A DNA stretch of 64,000 nucleotides from TPA_inf: Saccharomyces (Eukaryota), in the NCBI GenBank assembly GCA_000146045.2, contig BK006941.2, positions 1 to 64,000 of the forward strand. Direction: 5' to 3'. Under the pieces are notes generated by a model. The model worked only from the letters and a program-made list of their open reading frames with translations. It was not told the origin of the DNA and made no database searches. The translations under genes were made by a program, and so were the position numbers. Positions within the stretch are counted from its first letter, which is position 1; each line of letters starts with the position of its first letter. This document shows, piece after piece, positions 5,312 to 20,658 of the stretch.

Positions 5312-5839
5312 ATGCGTAATAATGTGACTGAATTGGTCAACAGTATAATAGGTGTTCAAACACCTGGATCGCTACCAGATACTCTTTCTGGGGCACATTC
5401 ATTGCAGAGACGCATAAGCTATTTTGACGTCAATTGGATATCATGGAATTGGGACAATGTAAATGTTGATCTTAATAAAGAGGTAAAAAAAAGTAGGCCC
5501 CTCCTTGGGGAGGAGGACGATCAATGCATGTTCGGTTGGTTCGCAAATAATCCAGGGTGGAAATATTACTGGTCGGTAACTGATAATCCTGATCCAGGAT
5601 ATAAAGAGAATTACTCTGACATTGGAGATGAAAATGCTGTCCACGGTGAATTATATTTTAACACATATGGGGGGTTGATGGCTTCTGTAATGACAACAAA
5701 GATGGTGCTCAATGCGAAGAGACAGCTTGTGGTTATTGATACAATTGTGGTAAAGGCCATCTGCGATTATGTTATGAAATATTGGAAAAAAAAGGTTAAC
5801 CTTACTACGATATCATTATATTTGATGTTAAAGTTATAA
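5312..5839 (+). CDS. Subtelomeric hypothetical protein (175 aa), YGL262W-like
   Basis: 175-aa ORF. Its size and position (second gene in from the telomere) match YGL262W. No domain is recognisable. Confidence 0.55.
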   Translation: MRNNVTELVNSIIGVQTPGSLPDTLSGAHSLQRRISYFDVNWISWNWDNVNVDLNKEVKKSRPLLGEEDDQCMFGWFANNPGWKYYWSVTDNPDPGYKENYSDIGDENAVHGELYFNTYGGLMASVMTTKMVLNAKRQLVVIDTIVVKAICDYVMKYWKKKVNLTTISLYLMLKL

Positions 5840-6289
5840 AGCCAGACATTTTCAATCTTTCTTTAAATCAATGAAAGAAGATGCGCAAATATTGAAAGCA
5901 TTGACTACTAAGACTTAGGAAAAAGCTTCTGTTGACGATTTATAATGTTATATCAAATAATTAAATTTATTTCCTAGATTTTTGAATTGTGAGAGACATC
6001 CCTAGCATGATTTTTTTTCACATATACTTTCAATTTTAATAGAAATGGAGCCGTCAAATTTAACTTATTTTCTATTTTTATAATTGAAAATTTTATTTAT
6101 TCATCTATTCTACATTTTATTTTGGTGTTGGGATTTTTTTCCGGCTTAAATATATGGTCAGATCTTTTATTTATATTACACTTATCTACAATTTGTATTT
6201 ATATCATCAAAAAGAGCTTTTTATTTCTATATTTTATTTTTCGTTACTTACCAATGTCTATAGAATTTCGTTCGTAAAGGCGTTTGTCT

Positions 6290-6652
6290 CTAGTTTGCGA
6301 TAGTGTAGATACCGTCCTTGGATAGAGCACTGGAGATGGCTGGCTTTAATCTGCTGGAGTACCATGGAACACCGGTGATCATTCTGGTCACTTGGTCTGG
6401 GGCAATACCAGTCAACATGGTGGTGAAGTCACCGTAGTTGAAAACGGCTTCAGCAACTTCAACTGGGTAGGTTTCCGTTGGGTGGGCGGCTTGGAACATG
6501 TAGTATTGAGCCAAGTGAGCTCTGATATCAGAGACGTAGACACCTAATTCAACCAAATTGACTCTTTCGTCAGACTGAGCTAGAGTGGTGGTTGCGGAAG
6601 CAGTAGCAGCGATGGCAGCGACACCAGCGGCGATTGAAGTTAATTTGACCAT
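6290..6652 (-). CDS. PAU11: Seripauperin (PAU family, 120 aa)
   Basis: [54 protein letters not shown]... is a canonical PAU/seripauperin sequence with a signal peptide. ATG confirmed as cat at 6650-6652. Confidence 0.9.
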
Positions 6653-6859
6653 TGTATTTGTTTTGTTTTTTAGTGCTGGTATAAGCTTAACAGGAAAGAA
6701 AGAAATAAAGATATATTCTCAAAAGCATACAGTTGAAGCAGCTCTATTTATACCCGTTCCTCTATCAGTCATCACTACTTAAACGATTCGTTAACAGATG
6801 CTCATTTAGCACCTCACATATCCTCCATATCTCATCTTTCACACAATCTCATTATCACT

Positions 6860-7090
6860 ATGGAGATGCTCTTGTTTCTGAACGAATCATACATCTTTCA
6901 TAGACTTCGTATGTGGAGTATTGTATTATGGCACTCATGTGTATTCGTATGCGCAGAATGTGGGAATGCCAATTATAGGGTGCCGAGGTGCCTTATAAAA
7001 CCCTTTTCTGTGCCTGTGACATTTCCTTTTTCGGTCAAAAAGAATATCCGAATTTTAGATTTGGACCCTCGTACAGAAGCTTATTGTTAA
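6860..7090 (+). CDS. Small subtelomeric ORF (76 aa), YGL260W-like, weak coding evidence
   Basis: ATG-initiated 76-aa ORF at the position expected for YGL260W. No recognisable domain. Confidence 0.35.
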   Translation: MEMLLFLNESYIFHRLRMWSIVLWHSCVFVCAECGNANYRVPRCLIKPFSVPVTFPFSVKKNIRILDLDPRTEAYC

Positions 7091-8469
7091 AGCCCATACT
7101 CAGTCTGTTCTAAACGGCTTCCATGCAAGAAATATTTCTATCTCTTGAATTCGTACAACATTAAACGTGTGTTGGGAGTCGTATACTGTTGGCGTCTGCA
7201 AATTTGTGAATTCTCCGCGAATGCCTTGGTGCAATTACGTAATTGTAGCCGCTGAAGGCGGATGGTTTTGAGAGAAGTTGATGTTCAAAGAATCGTGTAT
7301 GATAAAAAAAAAAAATTGTAACCAATTCGTAAATACTGAAACTCTTTGCAGTAAGAAATCTTTCATTCCCAGAGAGAACGCGGAAATATTCAGCCTAAGT
7401 CTCTCCAAATTGATTTCTTTCATTTTGGTAGCGAAAGACTTAGTATCAACCTCAAAAAGCTGAAATTTTTGTAGATATATGTGCAGATGACATGAAGTAT
7501 CCAGCTCTTTTGTGAATATGGAAGCAAGTTTCTTTCAAATTATTATCGACTTTTCCTCTGCCCCTTTTACCTTATAACTTTAGGAAACACTACCCTATTC
7601 ATACTCAACTAAAAAAGTAGTACGTTTTCTTCTTTGAGAGGTATGGTGCAAACCAGTGCAATCTGATTCCAGATTGCCCTCACGTGAGGCTTCAGTAAAT
7701 CTCGATCCCTCTACATATTATATTATCTCCTACTTGGCAAAATAGATGTGGCTTTAGTTGATGAAAATTTACCACGTCAACTATTTATGTCCTTTCTACA
7801 ATAAACCCCGACCTACTATCCTCTATGTTGTTTTTAACATACCATACGAGCGTCATATGTCTTTTGGTTCACTGGGGAAGACCATCACTGTTGAACGTTT
7901 GTTGAAAAGTTCGAGATGATGAAGATTGCATAACAAAATGTAAAGTTATATTTAGAAACTATAACGGTTCAAGACATTCAACACTATAACATAGCTTGGC
8001 TGGCTTGAACAAAAAGAGGAAGAAGCAAAAGCAAGAGTAAAAAGCTTCTCATATATTTCTGGCATTGTTGATCACCCAGTGCAAGCCCAATTTCGCCTGT
8101 GCTTTTCTTAAATTGTTTCTGACAACACCGAGGTTTTCGCTGCAGAAAAGGACATATGGTGGTAATTTGTATAAGGGGTTAAGGGTCCAAAAATTTGCTA
8201 CCCTATCGCTCACTATAGCAAAATATCTCGAGAGATATCCGAGGAGTTAAAACTGACTAGACCTGTTGCGTAAACCTCATGCAAGCAGTACTCTTCGAGG
8301 ATTTAAGCTTTGGAACTGCTTTCAAAGTTGAGAGTATATAAGGTGTTATGATCTTGGAATAAGGTTTTTCATCGTTCTTCCTTGTTCTCTATTTTCATTG
8401 GTTGATCAGTTGTTAAATTTTGTCTCTTTCGAAAATAAGGATATTTGAAGACAACGCAACGCTATCAAT

Positions 8470-8967
8470 ATGCAATTGTTTTCCATCCTCTCTTTGTTGT
8501 CATCATTGATGTGTTCATTGACCGTTTTAGGGTCTTCCGCAAGTTCCTATGTTAAGTTTCCTGTTCAAAAGTTTGCTGATATTATAAATATAGGCACACA
8601 GGATGTTTCTACCGTCTTCAAAAGAAATGAGGTTCTTAACACCACAGTGATAAATGGAATAGGAGTGTATGTTGTCAAGATGGAAATCGGAACGCCTCCA
8701 CAAACGGTGTACCTACAGTTAGATACTGGCTCTTCAGATATGATTGTGAATAATGCTGACATTGCCTATTGCAAATCGATGTCTGACGGATCTGACTACG
8801 CTTCAACTGATAATTACGAACTCACGGCAACATTCACTGGGCCTCGTTCTACTACCACCTCACCAGAGCTTATAACACTGTCCGCTCTTATAGGGGTAAA
8901 TTCAATGCAAGAAACTCATCTACTTTTAAGAATAACGCGACTTTCTTCAATGACATATACGTATTAG
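8470..8967 (+). CDS. YPS5: Truncated yapsin-family (GPI-anchored aspartic protease) N-terminal fragment, 165 aa, a likely gene relic
   Basis: Signal peptide [21 protein letters not shown] is followed by the pepsin-type catalytic motif [10 protein letters not shown]. The ORF terminates after 165 aa, where a full yapsin is about 570 aa. Downstream homology continues in other frames (see findings). Confidence 0.75.
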
Positions 8968-9149
8968 AAGGAACCTATGGTACGGACGTTGTCTCTTTAA
9001 AGAATTTTTCACCTTAAATAATATCATTGTTGGCCTATTAAATTATAAAATGGGCAATCCAAGTGGCATTTTAGGCATATCCCTTCCCCTTGCAGAATTT
9101 ACAGATAATGTTGAAAATGCATTTGCTTTGAACAGAAAACTCTTCGTAT

Positions 9150-9395
9150 ATGAGAATTCTAATGGCATTTGAAAGACAAGGAAAGATCGAAAAGAAGATA
9201 TCGTATTCCTTATTTTTGAATGGACCTAATGTACACTTTGGGAGCATCTTATTCGGTGCAGTCGATAAAAGTAAGTACGCAGAAGAGCTCTGCACACATC
9301 CTATGCGTCAAGCTTATAATACCCTTGATTCAAACTCAAGAATAATTATCACAGTACAGAGTGTTGCAATTTTGGACGGCAAACTTGTATGGTAA
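9150..9395 (+). CDS. Small ORF encoding an internal yapsin-like fragment (81 aa from the first ATG at 9150; 77 aa from the second ATG at 9162), YGL258W-A-like
   Basis: The translation contains [27 protein letters not shown], which resembles the conserved yapsin/pepsin segment (compare LYLNSPDA..IIFGGVDNAKYSG). It belongs to the same decayed gene as YPS5. Confidence 0.45.
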
Positions 9396-11109
9396 AAGTG
9401 TTGTAGATATTCAGTTTCCAGTGCCATTAAATTCCGGTACATATTCTGTTTACCTACAAAATTTGTAAATTGGATTATTAAGAGTTTTAATGAGAAATAT
9501 AACTCTGATGATCAAGGCTACACTTTTGACTGCTCAAAAGTCAGGATACTTTACTGTGTGTCGACTTTGAATGACTTAATATATTGAGTTTATCTCCGAT
9601 AGTGTCCCAGCGCCACCCCTTGCTCCAGGATACTCCAGTATGTCGGTATATAAGTCTGATAGCTCCATCGGGACAGGAGATTTTATTAATGTCAGCTGAA
9701 CCTCGTATTTAGAATTTTCACAGTACACATCATTGCTTGTCACTGGAATGCAAGGCGATGGTGTTAGTTCTTTCCCAAGTGGGGGCAGTTCTAGCAAAAT
9801 GGCCCCTAAAAAAAAAAAGGTTGCATATATCGTTCTTCTTTTTCCTATTCATTGCTGTGCTTCACATCTTATTTTCTTTCATAATTAAAGAAGAGCCATA
9901 TAGTTTCGCATTGTACTACTGTGTAAGACAGCAAGTTTTTTGATAGACAACAAGAGGAGCTATAGTGGTAATACGAGTTATACTCATAGGTCCTATCTCC
10001 TATTCGTATTTATTACATTGTACTCTGCGGCTTCATATACAAATAATAAACTTATAAGGAAGGATTATACATTTTTGGAAATATTATCGCTACGATAGAT
10101 AATGTGATGAGTTTTACAAGTGTAAAATTCTTCCGTAGAGTTTGAGGGCAATCGCAAAATTTCCGGAGAGTCCTTGATAAATTATTACAGTGAAAACGTA
10201 TATGAAATGTTCCAATTGAGATATCTCGCTTATATTAATACTTCTTCTTTCTTTTACCATATATTTTCTAATTGGCCGCTCAGCTATAGCGATCTTTACA
10301 TGTATACTTTGAAGTTTTTTTAAACAGTGCACCCGTGCATCATACCTCATGCAAGGTACCTTTTTTTCTCAAAGGTATTGTCTTCTATTGAAGTGGCACT
10401 ATGGCATGATGAACCCTGAGCATTTCCGAATTCAACAGAACCAAATTGTCCAGAATTAAATCTGTCCGTCATGAAATAAGCAACTTTTTTTCAATCAAGT
10501 GAAGTGAGTTTTGCAGTATCTTACCATTATTTTGACCTATTGGCCGCATGTTTGTGCTTTGACTTCGAGAACCATGTTAAAGCTTACTTGTACGACAACC
10601 AATGAAGTACATTACGGCAGTTTTTTGGACTGGGTCAAAAAAAGTGTTGCATAATCAAATCAGGAACACATTAAAATGTTATAAAATTTGTCTTAGTATG
10701 ACCTGAGTGGTTATTCATTACGTACTACTGTCAAAATATTCGGATCTTTCCTAAACGGGCTTTTGAATTAGTGTTGCTTCTATTCCTGGAATGGAAGGTA
10801 GTAATTTCATGCATTCTCGCTTTTCGGACTTTTAACAATAAATTAAAAACAATGATACTTTCATCAACTACCTATACACCCTGCGGGTCAATTATTTTTT
10901 TTTTCGAATAACCGCTGAGGTTGGAAATATAGAAACATATTCCAGATCTGTATTTTCAGTTGCTAGAAAAAGGTTAATATTATCATTAAGGTTTTCAGCA
11001 TATAACAGGTATAATTGATATATAAGCATCGTAATTTTCATTCAAAATGGAGAGCTACTGCTTCTGATAGATTGTACAATCTCAAGAAATCAAGAACAAC
11101 AACCATACC

Positions 11110-11730
11110 ATGAGTTTCCTAAGCATTTTTACTTTTTTCAGCGTCCTTATTTCTGTTGCAACAACCGTCAGATTTGATTTGACTAACGTTACCTGTAAGG
11201 GCCTACATGGACCTCATTGTGGTACCTACGTTATGGAAGTCGTTGGTCAAAACGGTACATTTTTGGGTCAATCTACGTTTGTTGGCGCCGACGTCTTGAC
11301 TGAAAGCGCTGGTGATGCTTGGGCAAGATATTTGGGCCAGGAAACAAGATTCCTCCCAAAGTTGACTACTATTGCTAGTAACGAGACAAAGAACTTTTCT
11401 CCACTCATCTTCACCACCAATATCAACACTTGTAACCCTCAATCCATTGGTGACGCTATGGTTCCTTTTGCTAACACTGTTACTGGTGAAATTGAATATA
11501 ACTCTTGGGCAGACACTGCTGATAACGCTTCCTTCATAACCGGTTTAGCTAACCAATTGTTCAACTCTACCGATTATGGCGTTCAAGTTGCTTCCTGTTA
11601 CCCAAATTTTGCTTCTGTTATCTTAAGCACCCCAGCTGTGAATATTTTCGGTAAGGATGACACATTACCAGATTATTGTACCGCCATTCAGCTAAAGGCC
11701 GTTTGTCCACCAGAAGCTGGTTTTGATTAA
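11110..11730 (+). CDS. VEL1: Secreted zinc-regulated protein of unknown function (206 aa) with signal peptide, VEL1/YGL258W
   Basis: 206-aa ORF with the N-terminal signal peptide MSFLSIFTFFSVLISVATT. Position and length match VEL1, a Zap1 target and paralogue of YOR387C. Confidence 0.7.
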   Translation: MSFLSIFTFFSVLISVATTVRFDLTNVTCKGLHGPHCGTYVMEVVGQNGTFLGQSTFVGADVLTESAGDAWARYLGQETRFLPKLTTIASNETKNFSPLIFTTNINTCNPQSIGDAMVPFANTVTGEIEYNSWADTADNASFITGLANQLFNSTDYGVQVASCYPNFASVILSTPAVNIFGKDDTLPDYCTAIQLKAVCPPEAGFD

Positions 11731-12480
11731 TCTTTTCTCACATCCTCACTTATAGATATGTTTTGATTATTTTCGTTATAGACAAAAATCTTTTGAGAAA
11801 GCCATGCGGAAGTTATTTTTAACTGTAAAGTACAATCGATTTCCTTTAGGCATTTCTACTTTCTTCTGACCCTGATTTAAAATTTTCGAGTTCTTTTTGT
11901 TACGATGCGTTATTTATTGTCGATTTATTACATATAATTCTTTATAATATAAAAGTGCAATACAGTGCATCTAGATATGGATTTTCAAAATTTTGCAGAA
12001 TATGATCGGTTTGCCTACAAGATAAAAGTAAATTATTCACAATTTCCAACATTTAAAAGTGGCGATCGCATAGTAAAAGCGTTAAGAATGATGCTACATC
12101 CCACATGAGAGTGGTTCGATTATGCTGAATTTCAACACCAATTCAATATACTTTAATTTAAACAGACATTTATGATGCCAGAGACATAAAGGATCCGAAA
12201 GGTTTTAGGAACACCTTAGTGGAAAATCATTTTAGCGTGGCCGGGAGTACCAGATTTTTCATAGTTCCCTATTGCAATCAATTTGGATTTTTGCTGGCGT
12301 TGCATCATGGCTATGTTATCCAATGCATGCCAAGAGTGATTTACTTAAAGAGTAACTTCGTTACAAAACATTACGTTATACTTCAGTGCGATAATTTTTC
12401 AGATATCAAAAATTATACTACATTATACAACAAAAGCGTGTAGGTTTACCTATTGCTTATAAGACTAGAACAACTCTTGG

Positions 12481-14157
12481 TCAAATATCTTTATTCCATA
12501 TGTCGACTATTTGTGAAAGCCGGAGCTTTTCGTCTTCTTTAAATTTGATCAACTTTCCAAACTCACCTTCCTTGAATAATGTGCAATAATTGAACAAAAA
12601 ACACTCTCCTGAGTTAATCCATCCTGATATACTAGTATCTGGTATTATAATCCCTTCAAGTTTTACTGGTGATGCATAATATTCACGTAATTCATCTGCA
12701 TTTTGGAACATATCATTTAGTCTCTGTCTATGCTCATAATCGTATTCCCATGAAGTTTTTTTACAAATATTAAGGCCCCCGTTTAGCCATAGCAAGGACC
12801 CGTCCCTGTCTGTATGAGATAGTTGCACAGAACAAATCTGGTAAAACTCACCGGTACTCTCTTTTGAAACTACATTGCCCAACTGACCAATGTTTGATGC
12901 ATCCACAGGATGGAACGTAAAGCGATTGTTCGAAAGTAATTCGCCCAGCCAAAAAAAGTCCTTATCACCATGAAAATATTCTGCAATTGGAGAAAATTGT
13001 AAAGCTATTGAAGTAAGCATACTGAAGAGATGCTTTCCTTTATGCAATATTACCAGGCCGCTTTCCAAATGATGTTTATATTTCTTTATAAACATGTTTT
13101 CCAGAACCTGTGCAACCACTGGATCCTCTACTTGCTCATGTATCTTGGATTCATCCTCTAAATCAAGCCCAATACACCCATAGACAATTTCCCTTAGAAT
13201 TTTTAATTCAGAGGATTCAAATAGATCATCTGATATTACCCGATCTTTAAAGAATAGAACTCCAGTCTTTTGAAATTCCTCTAATTCATAAAATTTTTCT
13301 ATTGAAACAAAGGGCACTGTATCTGAGTCCATTAGAATAGGAATTTCAAAGGATGAGAAGGTCAATGCTAACCACTTGTTGGAATAGGTGGTAAATTTTT
13401 TCGAATATTTCGGGTTTAGCAGACTATGTACATTTAAAAACCATAATTCTTGAGCAGGATATTCAGCGGTGTCTAGACTTCTCGCATATTTGATAATAGA
13501 TTTCATGGAATCTTGACTCAGATCTGCATTATGAACAATCTGTATAGGATAATCATTTTTGATGAACCTCAACACTTTCAATAAGCGTATGGTTTCATTC
13601 AACTGCACGTCAGAAGCACTAATAACTATGCCTTTCGAACCACTTTGAGTCACAGTGTGCAACCAATTCTCCCAAAAAGATAGCCCTGTATCGAAATTGA
13701 TGGGCTTAGAACGAAGGAATTGATGGTTTTTGGGGTCAAATTCCAACATAGACGCATGGTAAACCTCGCCATTCCATCTCGTAGTTGTGTGCCAGAAGGC
13801 ACTTTCATCAGTTTCTAATTTTTCAAAGTTAATATACGGAAAGAGCTTCTTTTCAATATCCCTCAAACGCTGAATATTATGCCCATCAACCTGCTGCAAG
13901 CAATTAAAAAAAATCTTAATCCTCGTAACCAGTTCAATCACATCTTTTGCAGGATTCGGGGTTATTTGATTTACGTCGTAGAAGTCATTCAACCACCCAG
14001 GCGTAAGACCTTCATAGTAACTCCAGCAGCCACCATTGCCACTGCTGCTACTTTGAACTGGTTCTACCAAATCTAACGAATTCAACTGAGAGTAATATAC
14101 TACTAACACAATTCCCAGTAGTACAACTAATATAAACAGTCGATTTTTTCTTCTCAT
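12481..14157 (-). CDS. MNT2: Golgi alpha-1,3-mannosyltransferase (MNN1 family), type II membrane protein, 558 aa
   Basis: Short cytosolic N-terminus followed by a transmembrane anchor, MRRKNRLFILVVLLGIVLVVYY. The length of 558 aa and the position match MNT2. ATG confirmed as cat at 14155-14157. Confidence 0.8.
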   Translation of the reverse strand: MRRKNRLFILVVLLGIVLVVYYSQLNSLDLVEPVQSSSSGNGGCWSYYEGLTPGWLNDFYDVNQITPNPAKDVIELVTRIKIFFNCLQQVDGHNIQRLRDIEKKLFPYINFEKLETDESAFWHTTTRWNGEVYHASMLEFDPKNHQFLRSKPINFDTGLSFWENWLHTVTQSGSKGIVISASDVQLNETIRLLKVLRFIKNDYPIQIVHNADLSQDSMKSIIKYARSLDTAEYPAQELWFLNVHSLLNPKYSKKFTTYSNKWLALTFSSFEIPILMDSDTVPFVSIEKFYELEEFQKTGVLFFKDRVISDDLFESSELKILREIVYGCIGLDLEDESKIHEQVEDPVVAQVLENMFIKKYKHHLESGLVILHKGKHLFSMLTSIALQFSPIAEYFHGDKDFFWLGELLSNNRFTFHPVDASNIGQLGNVVSKESTGEFYQICSVQLSHTDRDGSLLWLNGGLNICKKTSWEYDYEHRQRLNDMFQNADELREYYASPVKLEGIIIPDTSISGWINSGECFLFNYCTLFKEGEFGKLIKFKEDEKLRLSQIVDIWNKDI

Positions 14158-15158
14158 ATTCGATAAATACTATTGGGGCTACTTTTGTCCTGTCACTGCG
14201 GATTTGCAAACACTCATGCGAATATTTTACTCAATTGAGAGATTTGCTGTCTCCCCCCACTTCGATGGTCCCCACCCCTAAAGTAAAGGAAAGAAGAATT
14301 AGCACTGTTTTAGTTCCAGGTACTTCTTTCTTTCTTTACCGGTATTGTGTGGCTCATCAAAACTTCGTCTCGGGAAAATGAAAAATGTAAACAAGAATTT
14401 CCGTTTCAAAGAGTTGCCTAAGGCCCACTAATAATGTACTTATTATTTACAATTCGGAGAACGCTGCTGATAGAAATCAATCAAGAAGTCCCTTAGTCTT
14501 TGTGTGTTTACGCCATATTGCTTAGTTTCGTAGTGCGTTACAGTTCTATCGTGTGAAAATTTTTTTCTAATGCATCAGCTGTTATGCGCACTACTTGAAA
14601 GGTTATCGAGCGTTTGTAAAAAGTAGAAGTACTTAAATGAACCTTCACGGTTAAGCAACCAGTATAATTGAGGCTGCTGATTTGAAATTGCGTTTTGTGT
14701 TCAGAAGGATCCCCGGAGGCCTTCAATGAGCTTCCATTTTATTTTCTCCAAGGAGGCCATTTTTTGTAGTGTGATGTTGACATGGTTATAACTGTTAGCA
14801 GTGTTTGTGATGATGGCTGTAGTATCACCGCAGTGGATTAGCTATGAAAAAAAAAAAAAAGAACTAGTTTTTAGTTCGCGCATCACGAGGTACGTGTTTA
14901 ATATGTCAGATGCTTGGGATCACGTATGCCGTTAACTCTACAAAGCAATTGATATTTTGCTGCCTCAAATATCTCACACTACTAGGATATATTCTTTTAT
15001 CAAACAGGAAAAAAGGGCAGCGTACCAACATGTATAAAAGGGTTATTAGCATTTCTGGTTTATTAAAGACTGGAGTCAAACGTTTTTCTTCTGTCTATTG
15101 CAAAACAACCATCAACAACAAGTTTACATTTGCAACAACTAATAGTCAAATAAGAAAA

Positions 15159-16307
15159 ATGTCTTCCGTTACTGGGTTTTACATTCCACCAATCTCTTTC
15201 TTTGGTGAAGGTGCTTTAGAAGAAACCGCTGATTACATCAAAAACAAGGATTACAAAAAGGCTTTGATCGTTACTGATCCTGGTATTGCAGCTATTGGTC
15301 TCTCCGGTAGAGTCCAAAAGATGTTGGAAGAACGTGACTTAAACGTTGCTATCTATGACAAAACTCAACCAAACCCAAATATTGCCAATGTCACAGCTGG
15401 TTTGAAGGTTTTGAAGGAACAAAACTCTGAAATTGTTGTTTCCATTGGTGGTGGTTCTGCTCACGACAATGCTAAGGCCATTGCTTTATTGGCTACTAAC
15501 GGTGGGGAAATCGGAGACTATGAAGGTGTCAATCAATCTAAGAAGGCTGCTTTACCACTATTTGCCATCAACACTACTGCTGGTACTGCTTCCGAAATGA
15601 CCAGATTCACTATTATCTCTAATGAAGAAAAGAAAATCAAGATGGCTATCATTGACAACAACGTCACTCCAGCTGTTGCTGTCAACGATCCATCTACCAT
15701 GTTTGGTTTGCCACCTGCTTTGACTGCTGCTACTGGTCTAGATGCTTTGACTCACTGTATCGAAGCTTATGTTTCCACCGCCTCTAACCCAATCACCGAT
15801 GCCTGTGCTTTGAAGGGTATTGATTTGATCAATGAAAGCTTAGTCGCTGCATACAAAGACGGTAAAGACAAGAAGGCCAGAACTGACATGTGTTACGCTG
15901 AATACTTGGCAGGTATGGCTTTCAACAATGCTTCTCTAGGTTATGTTCATGCCCTTGCTCATCAACTTGGTGGTTTCTACCACTTGCCTCATGGTGTTTG
16001 TAACGCTGTCTTGTTGCCTCATGTTCAAGAGGCCAACATGCAATGTCCAAAGGCCAAGAAGAGATTAGGTGAAATTGCTTTGCATTTCGGTGCTTCTCAA
16101 GAAGATCCAGAAGAAACCATCAAGGCTTTGCACGTTTTAAACAGAACCATGAACATTCCAAGAAACTTGAAAGAATTAGGTGTTAAAACCGAAGATTTTG
16201 AAATTTTGGCTGAACACGCCATGCATGATGCCTGCCATTTGACTAACCCAGTTCAATTCACCAAAGAACAAGTGGTTGCCATTATCAAGAAAGCCTATGA
16301 ATATTAA
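15159..16307 (+). CDS. ADH4: Alcohol dehydrogenase IV, iron-type (group III) ADH, 382 aa
   Basis: MSSVTGFYIPPISFFGEGALEETADYIK...GGGSAHDNAKA... is the Fe-ADH family signature. The ORF track shows a 465-aa open frame from 14910, but family homology begins at the ATG at 15159. Confidence 0.92.
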   Translation: MSSVTGFYIPPISFFGEGALEETADYIKNKDYKKALIVTDPGIAAIGLSGRVQKMLEERDLNVAIYDKTQPNPNIANVTAGLKVLKEQNSEIVVSIGGGSAHDNAKAIALLATNGGEIGDYEGVNQSKKAALPLFAINTTAGTASEMTRFTIISNEEKKIKMAIIDNNVTPAVAVNDPSTMFGLPPALTAATGLDALTHCIEAYVSTASNPITDACALKGIDLINESLVAAYKDGKDKKARTDMCYAEYLAGMAFNNASLGYVHALAHQLGGFYHLPHGVCNAVLLPHVQEANMQCPKAKKRLGEIALHFGASQEDPEETIKALHVLNRTMNIPRNLKELGVKTEDFEILAEHAMHDACHLTNPVQFTKEQVVAIIKKAYEY

Positions 16308-19300
16308 AAAAATCGAACGAACTCATAAACGTCAATTATGCGTGTGCCTTATTTATTTAGTTGTGCGTACAGTATAATGCACTTATTTATTTACCAATCA
16401 AATGATTTTTTTAACTTTTCACGATCTATATAATTACGTTAATTTCGAGTATATAACAATGAAAATATATATCTACGTTGTTTTAAATTGAAAAAAGAAG
16501 AACGGAAGTTCTATTAATGAGCCGAGACCGGTACGTTTGTTGAAAATAGTTTGGACTTAATTACTGACATACTGTTGGCTTTGAAGCATTTAAGACTGAA
16601 AAATAGTCATGCAAAAGTCATGCTTTAATATGGTGGGTTTCAGTTGGATGCAAGAAATAAAATGAAATTCGAAGGCCTTTTGCAATTAAACAAGGCATCG
16701 TCAACCAGACAATGTCGAAAATTTTGAGTCAATCTAAATCAATCCACCGCCACACTGAATTCTGTCAATGATATTGTCTTCCTTTTTTTGGTTTGATATC
16801 TCTAATTTTCAACCTGTTATAAGCAACGTCAATCCGATTACTTTCGTGTGTCATTCACATGCGCATATTTTTTTATTCGTTTTATGATATAGCTGTCTTT
16901 ATTATAACCTCGAAACACAACGGCAATGTAACCTTACCAGCCGCATTATTACAAGGAGCCCACTTTATTTTCAATTGCTATCGCTACATCGCAAATGCTA
17001 CAGCACCCCCATCAGACCTTGAAGTATATATATATTTAATAATAAATACATTATTGGAATGGCTAGTAAATTTTGACATAAACATGATTTCCGAACGAAT
17101 TAAAATACAGTTGATTTAGGAGAAAGTATCAGTACATTGCTAAAAATTTTAAGCAAATGTTAAGTGAAAAAGGCTTATCATTCAGATGAGCTTAAGAATA
17201 TACTTTTTGCGTTATTCAAGAGCGATGATTATTACTGAACTACTGTGACGATATCAGCAGCATGCCTGATAAATAAATCTGTACATTCGTGGAAAGTAGT
17301 ATGTACTTTTCAAATATTTCTAAGAGCTAATGATATTTATTTGATATTTATATCGACAAATGAATCTTTTTCATAGAAGCCGTTATGAAGACTCCAAATA
17401 GCAATACTCAAAATATACTATAAGATCTCCGACCAGGTACATAATACATGACACAGCACAAATAACCGACCAACTGACAATAGTAGAAAGTAGCGGACGG
17501 TGTCACACGGTTTTCTCGTCCACATCACTGGAAGTAAGCAATCTCTTGGCCAGCTTTCGGTGATCCAAATATTATATCAGACCAGTTTCATTATTCTCGG
17601 AAGTAGAGTCGAATATTTCCTATTGTATAGTGCTAATGCTATCAATGTTTATTATATACAACGTACAATAGTATTATTCTCTAAGATCGTTGAGTTGCTC
17701 ATAGAGAAATCCAAAATATTGTGCACAATAAATTATATTATCTTTTTGAGACGATGAAATCTTAAAAATTGTCAGCAAATAAATGTTTATTTATCGAATA
17801 CTAGGTCGAAACATTTTTTTTGTTTATTCAAAATGATCATGTACCTTCTTCTCGCGAAAGTTTTAATTAAAATTTACTGATAGTTTTTTAATGATGAACT
17901 TCTATAACTAAACCATAATAATGAAAATTACAGGTAATATTTATATCACAAGAAACGGCCCCTCTTTTCTGTTTTTATATAGTAACCATTAAGAATAGTT
18001 GGCTAATCTACTATGAAAGTTCCTAATTAAAAAAAATTCATGAAGAGTTAATCAACGTTCCAGTACCAAATTTATTCTATGTTCTCCTTGGAAGATGAAC
18101 TTGCCGCAGTAGATCATAGAACCTCATTTTCAACGTTTTCCAAAGAAATACTTTTTTTATTTAACTGACAAATATTAATACAGTCTTTATATCATCGATA
18201 TGACTAAAGTACATCGGAATTGCCCAGCAGTAGAGCTCGTGATCGAATAGAAAAACGAGGGCCTTCAGTAGCTCGTAGACATAGGTTAAGATCATGGATC
18301 CTGCATTAAAAAATTCACATAGCGCTAGAATTTTGTTAGCGCATCCGCCTGTTTTTCTTTCAAATGTAAAATTTTAAATACGATCATTCCTTTGGATACT
18401 CAGCAATAGTGCGCACCAGTTAAGAACTGTTTTTATGGTTAAACATGTCTTAATATAATGTGCATACTTCAATGCACCCAAAATGTATATGTTCAGACAG
18501 TTTGTCAATAGAGTAATAATCATTCAAACAAAACCGTAAATTTGAATGTTAGATGTAGCTGTAAAGAAACTTGCTAGATCTAAATATTAATAGAAAAACT
18601 CTAACTATCAATTAAACGACATCTTACATTTCAATTTCATAAAAATTATTCTTTTGGCTAGTTTATATCATATAGCTTTCCGTAAAACCAGTAACAAGCA
18701 ATACACTAAATTGTCCATGTTTTAACTACCATTTCCTTCTAATTTTTTTCCTTTCTTAGCTGATTTAATTCATTTATTTGCTGTCGTTTGCATTTACTGA
18801 CTAAAAAAAGTGTAAAATATGGGAAGCGCAAATTGAAAAGTCGGGTTGCGAAATTACCTGCCAAAAATCCACCTCGTTAATATCTAACAAGATTCAACGC
18901 CTGTTGACAAAAGAAACTCGTCAGTCTCTCAGTTTACTTCTATGTTTAACATATTTGCTATGATCCACTCTAGATTCTGCCCAGCCCTCAACTTCACGCC
19001 CACGTTGAGAGTACATTCAGTACGTTGAAAATACATTCAGTCACACCCGCAGCACAGCAAGTCGTTTCATCTAAGCTATTTTGATCGTTAGAATATCCAC
19101 ACCTCACAAGTATCGACAATTTAGATGTGTATTGGGTTTTGTCTACGCAAATACCATTAGTTTCACACAAGATGCCATCAGCGCTACTGTAAATAGATTG
19201 TTCCTCTGTTATCGTGCGAATGGAACTAGAAAACCAATAATCATTGAATAATATATGTGACAGTGACAGGCCACCAGAATAAAGCTAATATCTAGAGGGG

Positions 19301-20658
19301 TATTTCTTCTTGAGTGAAGAAGAAATATGCTACTTCCAAATTTTAGGACGACAAATCCTCATAATATGAATTAGGCAAATTACAGAATGAAGGGGGTTGA
19401 GAAGTCCCACAGCACATCGCTCCTTCGCTAAGAGCTCCACTGCTAAAACAGAAAAAAAAAGTATTAATCAATTGTACTACCATGTTCTTTGTTACTAAAC
19501 GCGCCTATTTTTTTCGAGAGCCTTTACGAGAGTCAATCAAGCATTCTCCCGCATACTTCGCTAAGAAAAAAGTGATCTTTAATTGGGCCCTTCATCTATC
19601 ATTTTTGCTTAAGTGGCGTAACTTATTTTATCATTTCCTCTCCCTGCCATCCTCTTTATTTTTGTTCTGTATCACAGCAGTTAATTCAGTTTCCATTCAA
19701 AGTATGCCACGGATAACTTGATGCTTCAAGAAGAAAAATTATTTGGCCTAAAACTTGCTGTTTCTTCACAATTTTTCTAAATGCTCTCCGATTCCCGGAT
19801 TGCAGATGTTTCACTGCTCCACATTATATCCTTTGTGTCCACCTTGATAATCGATACTTTAAAGATTATTTTGTGGGAGGAGAGCCTTAGAAAGAATACG
19901 CTTGTTTTAAGAAGGAAAACAAGCGGCACCAATCTTCAATTGGTATTTTAAAATCTATTAGACGTCAAATCCCGGTTAGACTTGAGATAGATGTACCTGG
20001 AGAGAAAATCTATAATAAAAAAAAAAATACTTTCAGGTCAGATATTTCTTTTTTTGTCCCTAATAAAAAGAAATGGTATTCTGCCAAACACCAAAGTGCC
20101 AAATAAGCATTATTTTACATAGTACGAAATGGAAATTACGTCAATTATCGACATTATGACATAAAATTGGATTTAACAAGATCTCTGAATCTGATATGCT
20201 TCTTTCATTAGGGTGGAAATAACAGCATTTGAGAGAAGCAATTGCCAAGCTTCTATGAAAATTTTCTAGAAGGCAAGAGTATTTCAGACTTTCCTAATAT
20301 GAAAGGACAAATTGACACTAATGTCTGATTATGGCCAATTCCTGCGGTAAATTACACGGCGATTACGGCGACATGAGCTCACATTCATCACTCTATGGGA
20401 CAAATGTTTCCAAACTGGGCGCAACAAACACCTGATGTGACTCCTACCCTTTGGACAATGCAGATCCACGCTACGGCAAATTAGTCAAATGCACTAGAAC
20501 ATGGCGCAAGTACTTATTGTGACCTTTGGGGTACCGTTACCGTCAGTTTTCTTCAGCTAAGGCGCGCGCGCCAGATAACTAAAAAAAAATATAGTTGCTG
20601 CTTAAAAAACAATACACCCGTACTCTCTTGCCTGTAAAAACCTCGAAGGACCAAAGAT

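Follow-up and report, generated by a model that had tools for sequence, protein, structure and literature searches.

The YPS5 locus

The 64,000-nucleotide stretch of Saccharomyces DNA analysed here (contig BK006941.2 of assembly GCA_000146045.2; hereafter the window) is the left end of Saccharomyces cerevisiae chromosome VII, as established from gene order and exact-match look-ups. By SGD coordinates the strain would be the reference S288C, in keeping with assembly L020, whose identity to the window is 99.9% over the first 19.4 kb. Less than 10 kb from the chromosome end, it carries the open reading frame (ORF) YPS5, which has been counted among the yapsins, a family of aspartic proteases anchored by glycosylphosphatidylinositol (GPI), and the small downstream ORF YGL258W-A. 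The original prediction, made from the letters of the window, took both ORFs to be pieces of one pseudogenised yapsin, and this is borne out by an alignment to the yapsin gene YPS6 that is colinear from start to stop and places all the lesions. With a probability of roughly 0.9, the locus is a pseudogene that arose, without processing, by duplication of YPS6, a subtelomeric gene for a GPI-anchored aspartic protease, and it consists of an old decayed body and a recent 5' patch. The coordinates of all features are collected in Table 1.

Table 1. Features of the YPS5 locus and its surroundings (window coordinates; lesions are relative to YPS6)
Feature	Position	Strand	Remarks
YPS6-derived pseudogene	8470-9884	+	Start codon to aligned stop TAA (9882-9884); codon-aware alignment to the YPS6 coding sequence
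YPS5 ORF	8470-8967	+	165 aa: 117 codons of fresh YPS6 type, 15 old in-frame codons, 33-aa out-of-frame tail
YGL258W-A ORF	9150/9162-9395	+	77 aa (ATG 9162) or 81 aa (ATG 9150), over YPS6 codons about 236-310
First catalytic motif, LDTGSSD	8719-8739	+	Intact, same as in YPS6; DTG at 8722-8730
Second catalytic motif, LNSGT	9427-9441	+	Decayed; within FPVPLNSGT, frame 1; Asp-to-Asn (AAT, 9430-9432)
1-bp deletion	8866 (8865-8867)		Frameshift in YPS6 codon 133 (GAAGC in YPS6, GAGC here); first disabling lesion
12-bp deletion	8963		In frame
2-bp insertion	9009		Frameshift
2-bp deletion	9156		Frameshift
3-bp insertion	9189		In frame
1-bp insertion	9388		Frameshift
4-bp deletion	9441		Frameshift
1-bp deletion	9544		Frameshift
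Nonsense TGA	9572		Gly373
181-bp deletion	9580 (junction 9580-9581)		Takes out YPS6 codons about 376-435, end of the protease C-lobe
Nonsense TGA	9697		Trp475
4-bp deletion	9817		Frameshift
Homology to YPS6 3' flank	9885-9929	+	Last 45 bp, proximal end of the old duplication; end of the blastn alignment
Homogenised tract	6657-8819		In common with the YPS6 locus (chromosome IX, right end): PAU11 promoter, YGL260W, YPS5 promoter, YPS5 codons 1-117
DUF5341 ORF	5312-5839		175 aa
PAU gene (PAU11)	6290-6652	-	Start codon at 6652
YGL260W	6860-7090		76-aa ORF
VEL1	11110-11730

The similarity of the locus to yapsins is well beyond chance. Translation of 8470-10200 in the three forward frames recovered every yapsin-like peptide quoted in the original prediction, the 18-residue one in frame 3, the 20-residue one in frame 2 and the remaining segments in the ORF at 9150-9395, and frame 1 additionally holds FPVPLNSGTYSVYL and a further 20-residue yapsin-like stretch that had been missed. 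The YPS5 ORF carries both features ascribed to it, a hydrophobic leader of signal-peptide type (mean Kyte-Doolittle value 1.8) and the first catalytic motif. For the Pfam profile PF00026 (Asp, eukaryotic aspartyl protease), positions 2-45 match the YPS5 ORF (E=2e-6), and an independent match of positions 131-176 falls in the ORF at 9150-9395 (E=6e-6); because these separate matches follow each other in profile order, the YPS5 and YGL258W-A ORFs cover successive parts of one domain. The frame-corrected translation matches profile positions 2-244 of 315 (E=2.4e-28), and intact Yps6 gives a full match (positions 2-315, 202 bits). Pfam scans of isolated short out-of-frame pieces gave no match, as such pieces are too short and the frame-corrected whole is needed. 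At the DNA level, the blastn alignment to the YPS6 locus spans 6194-9929. The single-gene view would have been untenable had yapsin similarity ended with the YPS5 ORF, and it does not, as seen from the Pfam match in the small ORF, the colinear alignment and the frame-corrected match. The interval of 8470-10200 first assigned to the pseudogene runs about 270 bp too far, since homology stops at 9884, or at 9929 when the 3' flank is included. YGL258W-A is an accidental open stretch in the old part of the pseudogene.

Disabling lesions

Lesions were placed by codon-aware alignment of window positions 8470-9900 with the coding sequence (CDS) of S288C-type YPS6 (L014 10001-11614). Relative to this reference, the locus has accumulated eight frameshifting indels, two in-frame indels and two nonsense codons, so that ten indels and two stops testify to multiple independent disabling mutations. 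The first of them, the single-base deletion in codon 133, leads to the YPS5 stop codon at 8965-8967, and the end of the profile that is missing from the Pfam match, beyond position 244, corresponds to the 181-bp deletion. A second DTG/DSG motif was originally considered unrecoverable; it can in fact be recognised in decayed form, as LNSGT, although its NSG (9430-9438) lies in another frame than the first DTG, with four frameshifts between them. The Ser-rich stalk and the GPI tail are also recognisable, ending in YRSSFSYSLLCFTSYFLS before the stop as against YRSSFSFSLLSFISYFLL in Yps6, but they are out of frame with all upstream sequence.

Measured against a functional yapsin, the locus lacks an uninterrupted pepsin-like domain, the pair of catalytic D[TS]G motifs, and an in-frame Ser-rich stalk with GPI signal. 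What it retains is an N-terminal signal peptide and pro-segment, residues 1-117 being 96.6-100% identical to Yps6. The only long ORF codes for the signal peptide, the pro-segment, some 50 N-lobe residues that include the first DTG, and the 33-residue tail; its product cannot form the bilobal pepsin fold of family A1 and has no membrane anchor. Programmed frameshifting and splicing were considered as means of rescue and rejected, since the lesions are too many, the first frameshift site is not slippery and 181 bp of the domain are absent. Judged from these lesions, the locus is unable to make a protease. Its homology to YPS6 takes in both flanks, beginning 2.3 kb before the ATG and reaching 45 bp beyond the stop, with neither a poly-A nor an intron-loss signature, and is that of a duplicated, non-processed pseudogene.

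Parent gene and neutral decay

In a protein-collection search with the frame-stitched translation, the best match was a 537-aa S. cerevisiae protein with 72% identity overall, whose cluster includes NP_012305, Yps6p of S288C. With Yps6 as best match and Yps1-type proteins at only 27-29% amino acid identity, the parent is Yps6 and not a Yps1-like protein of about 570 aa, the length originally assumed. Yps1 has 569 aa. The parent or sister gene is YPS6 (YIR039C, 537 aa), whose native locus lies at the right end of chromosome IX (chrIX-R). Its neighbours there encode proteins with GST, glutathione-peroxidase, short-chain dehydrogenase and AlaDh domains, and are GTT1, HYR1, IRC24 and LYS1.

The window copy and YPS6 are colinear over the full CDS, with amino acid identity of 96.6-100% in codons 1-117 and 66% thereafter. 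Both loci also carry a PAU gene and a small ORF of YGL260W/YIR040C type upstream, and the two genes form sister branches in neighbour-joining trees of both parts, the old part of the window copy on a very long branch. Unlike the window copy, YPS6 is an intact gene that retains the two catalytic motifs, matches the whole Pfam Asp profile and has a GPI-signal tail. Yps1, Yps3 and Mkc7 share the layout of the parent (signal peptide, pro-segment, bilobal A1 domain, Ser-rich stalk and GPI signal) and belong to the same Pfam family. Yps1 and Yps3, proposed earlier as alignment templates, are therefore from the right family, but Yps6 is far closer: the 27-29% identity of a Yps1-type protein from S. 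kudriavzevii (P0042, named in its source only 'aspartyl protease') compares with 66-100% for Yps6.

Two candidates for a closer counterpart were set aside. The S. eubayanus protein labelled 'Yps5p' (P0013; DI49_1721; L012 1-1587) is not syntenic and only 57-59% identical, so that its name is a best-hit label; the gene encodes an intact 528-aa family member, and where its contig ends it is accompanied by genes for an aldose-epimerase, a Pyr_redox_2 protein (pyridine nucleotide-disulphide oxidoreductase) and an ABC transporter. The other candidate, P0005 (538 aa, S. cerevisiae CQS_1a), was tried as an intact allele from the left end of chromosome VII (chrVII-L) and has different genes as neighbours.

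Additionally, internally deleted or chimeric YPS6-family proteins of 447-503 aa occur in the S. cerevisiae strains CGH_1, BDN_1c, CQS_1a and BBF (P0002, P0007, P0016 and P0017); in P0007, an N-terminal half resembling P0004 is fused to a YPS6-like C-terminal half. From such proteins in several strains, the YPS6 family seems to be actively recombining and decaying in the population.

The manner of decay was followed by polarising codon changes in codons 118-537 with three intact family members (L010, L011 and L012) as outgroups. On the YPS5 branch, 70 nonsynonymous and 16 synonymous changes were counted, as compared with 15 and 14, respectively, on the YPS6 branch. The near-equal synonymous counts (16 and 14) fit equal branch ages. 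The ratio of 4.4:1 on the YPS5 branch is about that of unconstrained sequence: the old part decayed neutrally.

Mosaic structure and exchange with YPS6

The pseudogene is not uniformly old. Between about 6650 and 8819, sliding identity to S288C-type YPS6 loci, of which three were compared, lies at 93-100%, and it is about 100% with the YPS6 locus of strain BDH_1b over roughly 6780-8830. The distal limit of the tract lies directly past the start codon of PAU11, and the proximal one at codon 117 of YPS5, 46 bp short of the first surviving frameshift. Distal to about 6650, identity falls to 80-88% across the PAU coding region, and none is found beyond about 6200. The proximal limit is sharp: there are no mismatches to YPS6 over 8708-8819, and from 8820 one occurs every few bases, with local identity of 63-87%. 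Within the CDS, mismatches number 4 of 350 at 8470-8819 versus 220 of 1059 at 8820-9885 (Fisher p=1e-24). All 52 four-fold degenerate sites in codons 1-117 are identical to YPS6 (distance 0.00), and 75% are identical after that point (Jukes-Cantor distance 0.30); distances to other family members at such sites are 0.6-0.85. A four-fold distance of 0.30 is about that between species within Saccharomyces sensu stricto. Over the non-coding DNA upstream (7340-8469), identity is 95-100% per 100-bp bin and mostly 98-100%. The step at 8820 cannot be put down to purifying selection, since the highly identical DNA takes in over 1 kb of promoter that is non-coding, and the only reasonable cause would be recombination.

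The tract is also seen in an assembly artefact. In L007, a scaffolded short-read YJM assembly, exactly the window positions 6657-8819 form a separate contig between two gaps of 100 N (L007 5984-6083 and 8248-8347). This isolated contig is a collapsed repeat, and its ends mark the limits of the tract shared by YPS5 and YPS6. Moreover, the working YPS6 of BDH_1b (L001) is of YPS5 type in its promoter and first 117 codons, agreeing with YPS5 at about 35 variable sites (7191-8707), among them four amino acid differences at residues 4, 35, 42 and 80, and is of YPS6 type again from 8820. A live YPS6 with a YPS5-type haplotype means that sequence passes between the pseudogene and the live gene, and exchange between the two loci is continuing.

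Comparison across strains

Comparison with other strains, which the original prediction had proposed as a check, covered eight other S. cerevisiae assemblies with an identical 165-aa ORF; for L002 and L006 among them, the lesions were also placed by codon-aware alignment. The lesions proved common to these strains, and no intact allele was found. All eight are identical to the window over 8400-9150. L002 and L006 have the same -1, -12, +2, +3, -4, -1 and -181 lesions and both nonsense codons, and the remaining six strains equal L002 at every variable site except one (9341). Over 9151-9915, about 35 sites differ from the window, of which YPS6 agrees with the strains at 22, with the window at 10 and with neither at 3, and each haplotype adds private lesions. 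At 9430-9432, for example, the eight strains have GAT, giving LDSGT in the second motif, with the frameshifts still shared.

In L002, L004, L006 and L007, T in place of G at 9285 makes codon 276 an additional stop that shortens YGL258W-A to 41 aa, and the small ORF is therefore not a conserved ORF even within the species. Its exact 77-aa product was found in 3 blocks with contigs longer than 1 Mb, as against 44 for YPS5. A search for an intact chrVII-L copy among the nine alleles at the locus, one S. cerevisiae haplotype lacking the locus and the homologues from the protein search yielded none, and no full-length S. cerevisiae homologue from the protein-collection search adjoins VEL1. The core lesions are not an artefact of the reference strain.

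Interpretation and alternative explanations

The observations can be arranged in two layers. In the first, an old YPS6 paralogue at the left end of chromosome VII lost its function and drifted neutrally, acquiring the eight frameshifts, the two nonsense codons and the 181-bp deletion and, in the reference strain, the change of the second catalytic Asp to Asn. In the second, much later layer, whose pattern is directly visible, ectopic recombination with the subtelomere of chrIX-R would have replaced about 2.2 kb (6657-8819), either by gene conversion or by break-induced replication followed by distal change. The promoter and the first 117 codons would thereby have been overwritten from the working YPS6. 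It is owing to this 5' patch that a clean 165-aa ORF with a signal peptide and a DTG motif exists. The locus is an ordinary subtelomeric pseudogene with an ectopic gene-conversion patch, a well-known type of event, and not a sixth yapsin.

Some points weigh against this interpretation of the locus. The 165-aa ORF does not vary among the strains examined, and constraint is one way to read this. The 5' exchange may have run from YPS6 to YPS5, from YPS5 to YPS6, or in both directions. Furthermore, the 165-aa product is presumed, from the DNA, to be absent or inert.

The first of these points leads to the alternative that survives best, namely that YPS5 is a working gene for a short protein, secreted or of the endoplasmic reticulum (for example a modulator of Yps6 of pro-segment type), with YGL258W-A encoding a separate small protein. 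The ORF is intact and the same in all nine alleles read, the assembly collection has its exact product in 96 blocks, it is both transcribed and regulated, and recent papers count it as a family member. However, the whole segment of 6500-9150, non-coding DNA included, is equally invariant among the strains examined, so that invariance is not specific to the ORF. Each of the four coding differences from S288C YPS6 is nonsynonymous, the final 33 residues come from reading on out of frame, and the fragment has neither the second catalytic Asp nor the GPI signal and lacks the greater part of the pepsin fold. YGL258W-A, for its part, is cut down in four strains and rare in full length on long contigs. 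A short functional protein is thus quite improbable. Equally slim are the prospects of a related proposal, that the 165-aa product is made and acts on Yps6 as an inhibitor or chaperone resembling a pro-segment, and/or that the pseudogene is a reservoir from which gene conversion feeds the substitutions I4F, L35F, C42G and L80V into the working YPS6, something at which the BDH_1b allele hints.

It could further be supposed that the breaks are peculiar to the reference strain, as sequencing errors or laboratory mutations, and that wild strains have an intact YPS5. S288C does have private lesions, namely the Asp-to-Asn change at 9430, the extra A at 9381 and a deletion of 2 bp in place of 1 bp at 9156, and many of its 'pseudogenes' are intact in other strains (PMC2876123, Table 2). 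However, eight independent assemblies carry the core lesions, together with the additional stop at codon 276 and other indels, and no full-length S. cerevisiae homologue from the protein search was found beside VEL1. This explanation is largely refuted already and can be given very little credence.

Hardly any more likely is a single duplication of 6200-9930 with different mutation or selection regimes on the two sides of 8820: it accommodates the order PAU gene, small ORF, yapsin kept at both loci, but not promoter DNA so close to YPS6 next to dead coding DNA at about 79% identity (8820-9884), the jump at four-fold sites across a boundary of less than 110 bp, or the conversion tract that ends at the same place in a second strain, BDH_1b.

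Subtelomeric surroundings

The window reads from the chromosome end through a DUP/COS gene, the DUF5341 ORF, the PAU gene, the 76-aa ORF, YPS5, the small ORF and VEL1, and 3' of VEL1 through a mannosyltransferase gene and then an iron-dependent alcohol dehydrogenase gene. A syntenic orthologue was sought by way of VEL1 in S. kudriavzevii and in the divergent S. cerevisiae haplotype ALI_HP2, and neither offered an orthologous locus for comparison. In the left end of S. kudriavzevii chromosome 7 (L016/L017) and in ALI_HP2 (L019), homology to the window starts only at about 10750, some 360 bp before the VEL1 ATG; the space upstream of VEL1, in which yapsin sequence is not detectable, is taken up by genes for an amino-acid permease, an aminotransferase and a fungal transcription factor, where the window has YPS5, PAU11 and COS12. 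The pseudogene thus belongs to the variable subtelomere and not to the conserved core.

ALI_HP2 itself is only about 92% identical to the window over MNT2-ADH4, which looks like introgression. Strong haplotype structure is also seen among the other strains. L002 and others differ from the window by 3-10% per 500 bp at 9150-13477 and 15500-18900; near-identity prevails between the window and L002 at 6500-9150 and 13477-15000. The divergent blocks span the 3' part of the pseudogene, VEL1 and the 3' end of MNT2, and again about 15.5-18.9 kb. These are deep haplotype blocks, with one switch point (about 9150) falling within the pseudogene, and they may derive from an old balanced haplotype, from introgression, or from exchange with a VEL1-paralogue block at the right end of chromosome XV (chrXV-R).

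Expression data and annotation

The recognition of YPS5 as a patched pseudogene has its main value as a caution, both for annotation and for the interpretation of YPS5/YPS6 expression data. The number of potentially working yapsins in S. cerevisiae is five, not six. A count of five, with YPS5 set aside as a pseudogene, is reportedly given by Olsen et al. 1999, Krysan et al. 2005 and Gagnon-Arsenault et al. 2006. As late as 2021, open papers include Yps5 as the sixth yapsin, and delete and measure YPS5, and no open-access paper was found that states that YPS5 and YGL258W-A form one pseudogene. YGL258W-A, likewise, should not be counted as an independent or 'young novel' gene.

As for expression, YPS5 mRNA has been measured by quantitative reverse transcription PCR (qRT-PCR) and found to be regulated, and in a published array of the ccw12 deletion both YPS5 and YPS6 were up 4.4-fold. 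A near-identical copy of the YPS6 promoter would explain both the transcription of YPS5 and its YPS6-like response to cell-wall stress. Identity to YPS6 is 98-100% over the first 350 bp and over a promoter stretch of more than 1 kb, so that the two genes cannot be separated with array probes or with some primers. For instance, the published YPS5 qRT-PCR forward primer (PMC8527512; window 8755-8774) matches the YPS6 locus exactly as well, and only the reverse primer of that pair (8842-8861) is specific for YPS5. 'Co-regulation' of YPS5 and YPS6 is thus expected and uninformative. More generally, the locus may serve as a teaching case: through subtelomeric gene conversion, a pseudogene that has long been dead can acquire a 5' end that is fresh and gene-like.

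Comparison with known subtelomeric relics

The closest parallels are the subtelomeric gene relics described by Lafontaine & Dujon 2010 (PMC2876123), which have the same profile: a position near a chromosome end, descent from a cell-surface gene by species-specific duplication, more than one frameshift and stop, and conservation among strains. Their catalogue omits the YPS5 locus, its only two chromosome VII entries being unrelated and located at 531 kb and 1083 kb; the omission is probably due to the pieces being annotated as ORFs. It does list another relic similar to YIR039C (YPS6) on chromosome XVI's left arm (chrXVI-L), beside an FDH relic, as well as YGL260W-like relics on chrXV-R and chrXVI-L; the supplement gives the S288C coordinates of these relics as chrXVI 19954-20441, chrXV 1082282-1082627 and chrXVI 8516-8861. 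With relics on chrXV-R and chrXVI-L, pieces of the block of PAU gene, YGL260W and yapsin are therefore scattered over several subtelomeres. A 2025 preprint reports YGL258W-A as present in 80 of 93 strains, at times at the right end of chromosome XV, which fits a mobile subtelomeric block. Unlike relics of the typical profile in PMC2876123, the YPS5 locus has a recent gene-conversion patch that restores an ORF-like 5' end.

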